From a virus: a stretch of DNA of 64,000 nt. The stretch lies in IMG/VR virus record IMGVR_UViG_3300030012_002828, positions 29,844 through 93,843 of that record. One strand, given 5' to 3'. The notes under the pieces are model-generated. The model was given only the letters and a program-made list of their open reading frames with translations, was not told the origin of the DNA and did not search any database. The position numbers were made by a program, and so were the translations under genes. This document shows positions 36,373 through 62,008 of the stretch, one piece after another. Numbering within the stretch: position 1 is the stretch's first letter; each line of letters starts with the position of its first letter.

Positions 36373-37425
36373 CTAATATAATCCGTGTGGTTTTGCTTCT
36401 AATTGTCCTGCTTGTGTAACTCTACAAAACTGTGCTTTATTTTGAAATTCATCAATTTTATATGCACCTACATAACTCATAGAAGATTTGATTCCATCAG
36501 TTATATCATCAACTATTCTTCTTACCTTTCCTTTGTATGGAGTAATTTTAGAATTACCTTCTACATTTTTAGTTTCTTCGCCTCTTGCTGTTTTAGAATC
36601 AATAGATGCAGAACCTTGATACTTTTTGTATAATTGTTCATTAGGCCATTGACCCATTTTAGATATAATTCCGGGTGTTTCTTTTGTACCCGCAAATAAA
36701 GAACCTATCATAACTGTATCAGCACCGAGAGCAATTGCTTTAGGAATATCTCCTACTGTTTTACAACCACCATCAGCAACAATATATGGTATTTCATCTA
36801 AATCTAAAACTTCATTTATATGATAAGCAATATCTAATAATGCTGTTGCTTGAGGAACACCGACACCTGCTCTAATTCTTGTTTCACACATAGAACCATT
36901 ACCTATTCCTACTCTTAAAGAATCAGCACCTGCTTCAATTAATCTTTCAGCCGCACCTTTAGTTACAATATTACCTGCCATTACATGAACATCTTCAAAT
37001 TCTTCTTTAATATAAGAAATCATTTCACCGACTAATTCATGGTCGCCATGAGCAACATCAATACATACACCTTGAATATTGGTATAACCTACTAAAGAAT
37101 CAAATCTTTCTTTACCTTTTTCTCCTACACCAATAGCGGCAATATATTGTCCTCTTACTTCTGCTTCAATATCATAACATAATGCTACTTGCTCTTTAAT
37201 ACTTTGAAATCTGTGTAATACTCCAATACCACCAAGTTTTGCTAATTCAATACACATTTCTGAACCGCATACTGTGTCCATTGGTGAAGCAATTAAAGGA
37301 ACATTTAAACTATAATTCCCAAATTCAACTGATGTATCACAATAAATTCTTGATTTTATATCTGACATATTTGGTATAATACTAATATCATCATAAGTTA
37401 AACTATCTCTTTCTTCTATTTTCAT
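36373..37425 (-). CDS. guaB: IMP dehydrogenase/GMP reductase family protein without CBS domains
   Basis: [44 protein letters not shown]. Confidence 0.85.
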
Positions 37426-46895: not shown

Positions 46896-47305
46896 TTATC
46901 TACACTCTCCTTGTTGTAAAAATATTTTGGATTTTCTACTTTTTTAAGATTCAGCGCAATCCATACTGAACCACTTAGAGAATCAACTCTAATTATTTCA
47001 TAATCTTCAGAAACACAATAAGTTTCTACCGATGGTGTTTTTCCATATAGTCTTTGAATTTCACTTGCAATAATTGGTAAATTATCAACAATATATTTTA
47101 TTATCAAAGGTTGTTGGATTTCTACATACGGTGCTGAAGATAATTCATATTCCCCTGTTTGATTACAAACATTACATTCTGCCCCATTACATATAGGACA
47201 TTCAATAATTAAATTTGTTAATACGGGAAACCTTACTCTTCGGACTCTTCTAAACTCATTAGATTTGTCTTGCTTAGGAATTCCTTTCCATTGTTTTTCC
47301 ACCAT
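46883..47305 (-). CDS. Hypothetical protein with CPICNG..CNVC Zn motif
   Basis: Start MVEKQW (47305) with GGAG SD; overlaps the JAB gene by about 73 nt. Confidence 0.6.
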   Translation of the reverse strand: MVEKQWKGIPKQDKSNEFRRVRRVRFPVLTNLIIECPICNGAECNVCNQTGEYELSSAPYVEIQQPLIIKYIVDNLPIIASEIQRLYGKTPSVETYCVSEDYEIIRVDSLSGSVWIALNLKKVENPKYFYNKESVDKWLA

Positions 47306-47700
47306 TTCATTCTCTCCATTTTTCCAAGAACAATTGCTGATTCCAATATAGGGGCTTGTATATTTATTGTATTCCAATCAGTATTACTAAAATATGCAGT
47401 TCCAAATGGATGAGTATGAATCCAACATCTAAGCGGTATTTTCATTCCTTTTACACTTTCATCTTTATAGTCTACAAAACTTGAAGTTCCCTTACTAATA
47501 AACAGTTTGTTATCTCTATCTACAATTACTGAAACTTCTTTACCATCAAGTAAATCTACTGATGCTTGCCATATTGATTCGTGAAAATCCTCATCATCAT
47601 AATTATTTTCATATGCAGCATTAATCAATTCCTTGCACAATTTCCATGTTTCTTTCTCTACTTCTATATTCATTTTATTCACCTTCTTCTTCATATTCAA
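47233..47700 (-). CDS. JAB/MPN+ metallo-isopeptidase
   Basis: E...WIHTHP.....FSNTD (JAMM motif HxH-x7-S-xx-D). Confidence 0.85.
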   Translation of the reverse strand: MNMKKKVNKMNIEVEKETWKLCKELINAAYENNYDDEDFHESIWQASVDLLDGKEVSVIVDRDNKLFISKGTSSFVDYKDESVKGMKIPLRCWIHTHPFGTAYFSNTDWNTINIQAPILESAIVLGKMERMKWWKNNGKEFLSKTNLMSLEESEE

Positions 47701-56460: not shown

Positions 56461-56499
56461 AAAAAAAGCCCCCACCGATTCCGAAGAATCAGCAGGGGC
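56461..56499 (-). terminator. Hairpin terminator with UUCG loop downstream of the Ubl gene
   Basis: GCCCCTGCTGATTC-TTCG-GAATCGGTGGGGGC followed by a T run. Confidence 0.8.
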
Positions 56500-56558: not shown

Positions 56559-56783
56559 TTAGAATCCGTCATCGAAGTCTTCACAACCACCAACAATTGC
56601 TTGAGCCAATACGACTTCATCAACCGCATTAAAATCAATGTTAGCAATTTCTTCTCTTGTAACCAATTCTCCATCAACATAAGCCCAATGGGTAGGATGG
56701 TCAATTATTTGGTCAAGTGCTTCACTTGCACTTAGAGTTAGTTCTGTGTGTCCTGTTTCATTCAATATTGTTATTTTTACCAT
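56559..56783 (-). CDS. Ubiquitin-like (ThiS/MoaD/SAMP beta-grasp) protein precursor
   Basis: MVKITIL..., 'AYVDGELV', 'DEVVLAQAIVGG' plus extension CEDFDDGF; strong SD AGGAAGTGA. Confidence 0.75.
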   Translation of the reverse strand: MVKITILNETGHTELTLSASEALDQIIDHPTHWAYVDGELVTREEIANIDFNAVDEVVLAQAIVGGCEDFDDGF

Positions 56784-56799
56784 TTTTTCACTTCCTTAT

Positions 56800-61705: not shown

Positions 61706-62008
61706 GTTACCATATGGTAACAGATAATAATGTTCTTAACTTAATCACTCATCATCGTCAAAGAACATACTGTTCACCCTCCTGCGGTTCATAATATGCT
61801 AACGCATGAACCATATGGTAATATGTTTGGTAATAATACTAATCACTCGTCATCGTCAAACATTTAATTACCTCCCCTGTGGTGTCCATAGTCTACTATC
61901 GTGGACAACCATATGGTAATAAGAAAATAAACTAACATCACTCACAATCATCAAACATTCTTATTATCCCTCCTGCGGTAGAATATGCTTTCGCCTACCA
62001 TATGGTAA
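61706..62008 (-). repeat. Tandem array of three ~100-bp units (palindrome - hairpin - SD - micro-ORF)
   Basis: Palindromes spaced 101, 98 and 89 bp; micro-ORFs 61745-61768 MFFDDDE*, 61843-61863 MFDDDE*, 61938-61958 MFDDCE*. Confidence 0.8.

Follow-up and report, generated by a model that had tools for sequence, protein, structure and literature searches.

A capped ubiquitin-like precursor predicted in magrovirus-type archaeal viruses, together with E1-like, candidate E2 and JAB partners

Precursors of ubiquitin-like proteins (Ubls) are familiar from eukaryotes, where polyubiquitin has a one-residue cap, SUMO and NEDD8 have tails, and processing is mainly carried out by cysteine DUBs. In Haloferax volcanii, the SAMP, UbaA and HvJAMM1 proteins combine small beta-grasp modifiers with a C-terminal Gly-Gly, an E1-only core, and a JAMM peptidase. 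Closest to the genes described here are systems that rely on a JAB/JAMM protein: the CsUb precursor is cut after Gly-Gly by CsRpn11 (PMC6043591), BilA is preprocessed by the JAB protein BilC with the removal of one C-terminal residue (PMC10557695), and QbsE and CxnE are trimmed by QbsD and CxnF (PMC5925218). Iyer and co-workers predicted roles for JAB proteins and described bacterial polyUbl proteins and Ubl-E1 fusions (PMC1779556). The principle of JAB-matured Ubl precursors is already known. What is new here is a conserved set of such genes in archaeal viruses, comprising a Ubl family that matches no known one by sequence, an E1 of very small size, and an E2-like domain on a large protein, with relatives from the host lineage that are fused or organized in the style of polyubiquitin.

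The DNA that we analyzed, referred to below as the window, is a stretch of 64,000 nucleotides with about 30% G+C, taken from an IMG/VR record of 93.8 kb. It belongs to a tailed virus of the magrovirus type whose hosts are Marine Group II archaea (Poseidoniales), and the Ubl homologues sit on marine contigs of 90 to 110 kb. The window encodes a prohead protease, an SU10-type capsid protein, PolB, an RFC-like ATPase, and nucleases, while two further large open reading frames (ORFs) look, by their motifs, like an ATP-dependent ligase and a class II ribonucleotide reductase. A full-length gene of the IMPDH/GMP-reductase family, which belongs to nucleotide metabolism, adjoins PolB (36373-37425, minus strand; Pfam E 4.8e-92). 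Magroviruses are among the most abundant viruses of the ocean. The magrovirus literature that we searched makes no mention of ubiquitin, ThiF, or JAB, and our literature search returned nothing that joins archaeal viruses, Ubls, and JAB. The features discussed below are collected in Table 1.

Table 1. Positions of the Ubl precursor gene, its signals, and its predicted partners in the window, and of a pseudoknot-like element in related loci
Feature	Position	Strand	Description or basis
Ubl precursor gene	56559-56783	minus	74 aa; core 1-64, Gly65-Gly66, 8-residue tail, stop
Gly65-Gly66 codons, predicted mature C terminus and scissile site	56586-56591	minus	invariance; edge of DNA conservation
Tail codons (CEDFDDGF), predicted removable cap	56562-56585	minus	tails of homologues variable
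TAA stop of the Ubl ORF	56559-56561	minus	
SD-like motif GGAAGTGA	56788-56795	minus	4 nt ahead of the Ubl ATG
Terminator-like hairpin with T7 run	56461-56499	minus	14-bp stem, UUCG loop; stem-loop itself 56468-56499
p417, candidate E2, 417 aa	49786-51039	minus	invariant Cys348 (GPICIDN); C-terminal domain (about 252-400) putatively UBC/UEV/RWD-like
Minimal E1-like adenylating enzyme, 185 aa	48661-49218	minus	Pfam ThiF, PDB matches, motifs
JAB/JAMM metallopeptidase, 155 aa, predicted trimming and deconjugating enzyme	47233-47700	minus	JAMM motif
Pseudoknot-like element	L001:10310-10351, L003:10313-10354, L004:4683-4721, L005:10304-10349, L006:7088-7129, L009:10306-10347, L017-L022, L056:3530-3576		

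An earlier, sequence-only reading of this DNA had proposed that the Ubl is made in a blocked form, in which eight extra residues follow a diglycine, and the ORF translation bears this out, as the C terminus reads AIVGG and then CEDFDDGF. That reading had also anticipated that homologues would conserve the Gly-Gly and differ in or lack the tail, and this is the pattern that we obtained. The protein database yielded 142 homologues, and 80 viral loci were gathered as well; the comparison of C termini covered about 190 homologues, of which 158 are distinct. Throughout these, the Gly-Gly is invariant in every complete relative, and in an alignment of 48 diverse homologues the preceding A-I-V is invariant along with both glycines. 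The tails that follow measure 0 to 24 residues and take 68 distinct forms among the 158 distinct sequences. A single residue makes up the tail in 29 of these and two residues in 91, and three distinct sequences, found in six loci, end exactly at the Gly-Gly. CEDFDDGF is unique to the window genome among the about 190 homologues; relatives whose cores are more than 90% identical to that of the window carry SV, NL, DDNDY, a 15-residue acidic run, or other tails. The same edge can be seen in the DNA, since the closest loci are conserved up to the Gly-Gly codons, cannot be aligned just after them, and realign only at a conserved intergenic word beyond the tail region. A profile search of 1.84 billion representatives returned 147 family members; many of the more distant ones have GG, or in some cases AG, as their very last residues, whereas others run on for one to four residues.

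Variable as they are, the tails show recurrent features. Cys occupies tail position 1 or 2 in 16 of the 67 distinct nonempty tails, against 1.2 expected, and Tyr is the last residue in 15 of the 67, against 2.8 expected; the tails are not phylogenetically independent, so binomial p-values for Cys and Tyr overstate the enrichment, and the pattern recurs in tails that otherwise differ and among the wider family members. Asp and Glu together account for 42% of the residues of long tails. The enrichment of Cys and Tyr suggests that the tails are not purely neutral and that the tail may do more than block. An intein-like N-to-S shift at GG-Cys, considered as a general means of activation, was ruled out because the first residue of most tails is S, N, D, Y, or Q. 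As for the four minus-strand MF(F)DD(D/C)E minigenes of the window, they are real (starts at 61958, 61863, 61768, and 59073) and recur in two close relatives (L003:4293 and L003:6915; L005:4533). Their suggested relation to the peptide released from the Ubl was not supported, because L003 has two such minigenes and a two-residue SV tail; the likeness to the window's tail is not conserved, and the presence of the minigenes is independent of the tail. The sequence-only reading is thus supported in describing a capped precursor that has its functional end at the Gly-Gly and is tied to E1 and JAB, and is not supported in relating the tail to the MFDDDE micropeptides.

The gene had also been credited with its own Shine-Dalgarno sequence and a UUCG terminator, as would suit a product that may be abundant, and both are present. 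A purine-rich motif comparable to GGAAGTGA stands ahead of the Ubl gene in 66 of 74 related loci. The UUCG hairpin, with its 14-bp stem and T7 run, starts 60 nt past the Ubl stop, and a 111-nt stretch that contains it folds at -34.4 kcal/mol (z = -5.6 relative to shuffled sequences). Only 16 nt separate the stop of the upstream ORF from the start of the Ubl gene. This gene thus carries a ribosome site and a terminator of its own, lacks the space for its own promoter, and closes a transcription unit. In relatives, a pseudoknot-like element lies 23 to 108 nt past the Ubl stop and is immediately followed by T6 to T9. It is built from interleaved stems of 4 to 7 bp and 4 to 6 bp with an A-rich third loop, and compensatory substitutions are found in both stems between loci, the register of its MAFFT alignment being poor. 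We found no such element anywhere in the window, where the plain UUCG hairpin occupies its place. Several loci (L001, L004, L005, L006, and L009) also share the intergenic word AGTTAGTATGCGACTATGGCATAT about 60 to 90 nt past the Ubl stop, beyond the divergent tail region; in DNA alignments with these loci, the window does not share it.

The AF2 model of the Ubl (pLDDT 73) has a bb-a-bb-a-b topology, and its best structural matches (MoaD, TtuB, CysO, SAMP1, and ubiquitin) are all beta-grasp proteins, at weak scores, with the matches to MoaD and those of ubiquitin type tied within 1 Z unit. We accept the predicted beta-grasp fold mainly because topology, Gly-Gly end, and gene context agree. Following the invariant G65-G66, the tail has a pLDDT of only about 51, which points to a flexible Gly-Gly end. 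At the level of sequence, the Ubl forms a family of its own: neither it nor any of the 48 homologues matched the ThiS/MoaD or ubiquitin families of Pfam at E values up to 1, Pfam and PHROGs gave no match for it, and its family profile had no match among PDB sequences at E values up to 10.

The proposal that the Ubl and the JAB gene, some 9 kb apart, belong together is supported by linkage across the 80 viral loci. On the same strand and downstream of the Ubl gene, p417 is found in 76 of these loci, E1 in 75, and JAB in 72, and in all eight loci that lack JAB the available sequence ends before the place where it would be expected. Wherever a locus extends far enough, Ubl, p417, E1, and JAB share one strand. 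Ubl and JAB are 3.5 to 9.8 kb apart, so that the 8.9 kb of the window lies near the long end; the spacing is shorter in viruses without a ribonucleotide reductase gene between Ubl and p417, and in some viruses the entire set from Ubl to JAB fits within 3.5 kb.

The E1-like protein scores 64.8 bits with the ThiF family (PF00899; cut-off, 28.1), its PDB matches are MccB, ThiF, MoeB, Cap2, and Uba1, and its invariant residues comprise GxGGIGS, D34, K57, D91-N92, R110, and Cys141 in SFSCQ. CxxC zinc pairs are absent from it. Tyr is invariant at its residue 45, a position held by Arg in MccB and in the NLxRQ motif canonical for this enzyme family, and by His in the host E1. As the protein begins at the Gly loop, it lacks the N-terminal helix on which the arginine finger of MoeB-type enzymes is located. 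In the JAB protein, E55, H95, H97, S105, and D108 are invariant among 35 homologues, corresponding to the motif E...HxHx7Sx2D. Its family profile matches AMSH-LP at an E value of 1.2e-4 and CsRpn11-like chains at 0.05, and the single sequence, at 16.1 bits, falls below the Pfam Prok-JAB gathering score of 25. For p417, no H-P-N appears among the invariant or near-invariant columns of the alignment, a Foldseek search with the whole model returned no significant match, its profile found no match among PDB sequences, and the atlas search gave noise-level scores only. We also observed that many genes of the window (for example, those ending at 47233, 46608, 46427, 44579, and 58049) and nearly all JAB homologues have Glu-rich C termini (EE or EEE). 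Probably, the purine-rich ribosome site of the following gene falls within the end of the coding sequence in these cases, which would amount to translational coupling.

Relatives from the host lineage carry the argument for processing further. The window's Ubl is a single unit, and the tandem form, which occurs only in host-lineage relatives, consists of three units (P0121, P0124, and P0125) or two (P0137 and P0143). Every unit closes with a hydrophobic residue, V (or Q), and GG, a linker of 3 to 6 residues follows, and the last unit is capped by 1 to 4 residues. The cluster of tri-unit proteins has 320 members, of which the source-named ones are Candidatus Poseidoniales or Poseidoniaceae and some lie on contigs of up to 789 kb; a species-genome scan detected tri-Ubl genes in 32 loci, mostly metagenome-assembled genomes labeled Poseidoniales or Poseidoniaceae. 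Fusions of the Ubl2-E1 and Ubl-E1 types exist as well (P0140 and P0172), and the E1 part of the fusion aligns with the viral E1 profile at an hhalign probability of 99.6% (E 1.4e-23). In one Poseidoniales locus (L112:9941-11589), two Ubl units are fused ahead of E1, and a JAB gene lies directly after the fusion. Since tandem and fused forms can yield a reactive glycine only through a cut after Gly-Gly, they argue more strongly than any other comparison that the Ubl is processed and that JAB is responsible. Neither the tri-Ubl nor the Ubl2-E1 fusion was found in scans of viral contigs.

The minimal viral-type E1 (E 1e-25 to 1e-30) was present in all five host genomes searched (G001-G005, L114-L118). 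The host E1 has 209 to 214 aa and overlaps the JAB gene in four of them, by 4 nt in three and with a longer annotated overlap in L115, and in the fifth it is a Ubl2-E1 fusion. The host genomes also carry another E1-like gene, which is more distant (E about 1e-9). The tri-Ubl gene is separate from the host E1-JAB genes and stands alone in L107. The p417 profile had no match in the five host genomes, which is not proof of its absence. Two further arrangements were noted. P0133, P0179, P0149, and P0165, on contigs of up to 1.66 Mb, place one or two GG-ended Ubl units ahead of a domain of about 300 aa; the idea that P0133-type proteins are Ubl-E2 fusions was dropped, as this domain aligned with p417 at an hhalign E value of 0.3. 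P0243 (2,042 aa) and P0252 (727 aa) contain seven and four Ubl-like stretches, respectively.

These data lead us to consider it likely that the gene encodes a magrovirus beta-grasp Ubl precursor with a C-terminal cap. In this model, the flexible eight-residue tail would block the carboxylate of Gly66 until a JAMM metallopeptidase, most likely the viral JAB, cuts after the Gly-Gly. The minimal E1 would then adenylate the freed glycine and probably take it onto Cys141, and the Ubl would be passed to protein targets, probably via Cys348 of the E2-like p417. JAB probably also strips conjugates. We infer the cleavage, the enzyme that performs it, and protein conjugation in preference to sulfur transfer. 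Trimming cannot be the sole job of JAB, because genomes with tail-less Ubl genes keep it (L045, L060, L065, L075, and L077), and the JAB homologue of the hosts could also do the trimming.

Three other explanations have to be weighed. The Ubl might be a sulfur carrier of the ThiS/MoaD/TtuB type, trimmed by JAB and adenylated by E1, whose thiocarboxylate would feed the thiolation of tRNA, a cofactor, or a modified base. MoaD, TtuB, and CysO are its top VIA matches, with 21 to 22% identity to MoaD, some homologues were named ThiS by JGI, JAB-trimmed sulfur carriers are known (PMC5925218), and a Cys directly past the Gly-Gly recalls the GG-CF end of QbsE. However, the tie between MoaD and ubiquitin-type matches takes weight from the structural likeness, the E1 is without a rhodanese domain, and a scan of about 30 window proteins turned up no rhodanese, desulfurase, PP-loop, or ThiG/MoaE-type partner. 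A conserved partner that has an invariant Cys and a putative UBC-like fold travels with the gene set, and the host tandem poly-Ubl genes resemble the way in which eukaryotic ubiquitin, a protein modifier, is encoded. We regard a sulfur carrier as unlikely.

A different possibility accepts the precursor but not the viral JAB as its maturase: a host JAMM or another protease would trim the Ubl, and the main job of the viral JAB would be to strip conjugates such as host Ubl marks as a countermeasure. The persistence of JAB beside tail-less Ubl genes fits this, hosts encode a homologous JAB beside their E1, and in 120 of the 158 distinct Ubl sequences the tail is only one or two residues long and could be removed by many peptidases. 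Yet Ubl and JAB are strictly coinherited, the host JAB in L112 directly follows a Ubl2-E1 fusion that needs Gly-Gly-specific cuts, and both tasks fall to the cognate JAB in the systems that have been studied (PMC6043591, PMC10557695), which makes a separate maturase, in our estimate, quite improbable. The tail could, at the extreme, be retained and have a function, such as that of an acidic docking peptide, on a protein that acts noncovalently and conserves its Gly-Gly for structural reasons only. The acidity of long tails and the Cys and Tyr enrichment, which implies some selection on tails, agree with such a role, but length and sequence differ even between cores that are more than 90% identical, some viruses and many distant members have no tail, conservation stops at the Gly-Gly, and the tandem and fused forms imply cleavage. 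We consider tail retention very improbable indeed, and favor the capped precursor that is matured, most likely by the viral JAB, for conjugation to proteins.

A more far-reaching version of the favored model, which we put forward tentatively and which we do not expect to hold in full, is that magroviruses possess a complete private cascade (Ubl, E1 with Cys141, E2-like p417 with Cys348, and targets) that is separate from the Ubl, E1, and JAB of their hosts. JAB-mediated maturation would be its gate or timer, and the recurrent Cys by the scissile bond and the terminal Tyr would not be neutral caps but selected features of this gate, perhaps an element that binds zinc or serves recognition.

If the capped-precursor model is correct, archaeal viruses tag proteins themselves, using their own Ubl precursor together with activating, carrier-like, and trimming enzymes, a design otherwise known from eukaryotes, Caldiarchaeum, and the bacterial Bil systems. 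The capped precursor defines a mature end, AIVGG, that can be searched for in metaproteomes. Moreover, the tandem GG-ended units and Ubl-E1 fusions of the hosts represent a polyubiquitin-style organization in Euryarchaeota, which bears on the origins of such precursors.

Among the known systems, CsUb and CsRpn11 of Caldiarchaeum subterraneum (PMC6043591, PMC5654768) offer a close parallel to the viral set: an archaeal-lineage Ubl bears a nine-residue extension after its Gly-Gly, the cognate JAMM cuts precisely after the Gly-Gly and also deconjugates, and E1 and E2 partners are present. In contrast, the window's genes are carried by a virus of Euryarchaeota and its Ubl does not match ubiquitin by sequence, the E1 measures only 185 aa, no RING E3 was seen, and the E2-like domain, which is without the HPN motif, makes up the end of a 417-aa protein. 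The BilABCD or Iyer-Aravind class 6 operons (PMC10557695, PMC1779556) likewise combine Ubl, E1, E2, and JAB, and polyUbl proteins and Ubl-E1 fusions are known from class 6 as they are from our host-lineage relatives. Those are bacterial defense operons, whereas here the set belongs to an archaeal virus, in which neither p417 nor the Ubl matches any protein family by sequence and the genes occupy as much as 10 kb, interrupted by a ribonucleotide reductase and a TFB-like gene.

QbsE/QbsD and CxnE/CxnF (PMC5925218) resemble the viral pair in that a ThiS/MoaD-like protein carries extra residues after its Gly-Gly (CF or a decapeptide), which a JAMM protein removes to expose the Gly-Gly, and a Cys directly after the Gly-Gly is shared with viral Ubls. 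These systems feed sulfur to small molecules and their E1 has a rhodanese domain, whereas the window has an E2-like partner and, among the proteins scanned, none for sulfur transfer. With eukaryotic ubiquitin and Ubl precursors, the viral Ubl shares a conserved Gly-Gly followed by a short, variable, lineage-specific cap, and the host relatives are arranged head to tail like polyubiquitin; the viral gene, however, is monomeric and has no detectable sequence homology to them. Finally, sampylation comes near in structure, as SAMP1 of M. acetivorans is among the structural matches of the Ubl (22% identity), and differs in its components, as the viral set adds an E2-like protein and the hosts carry both a viral-type E1 and a more distant E1-like gene.
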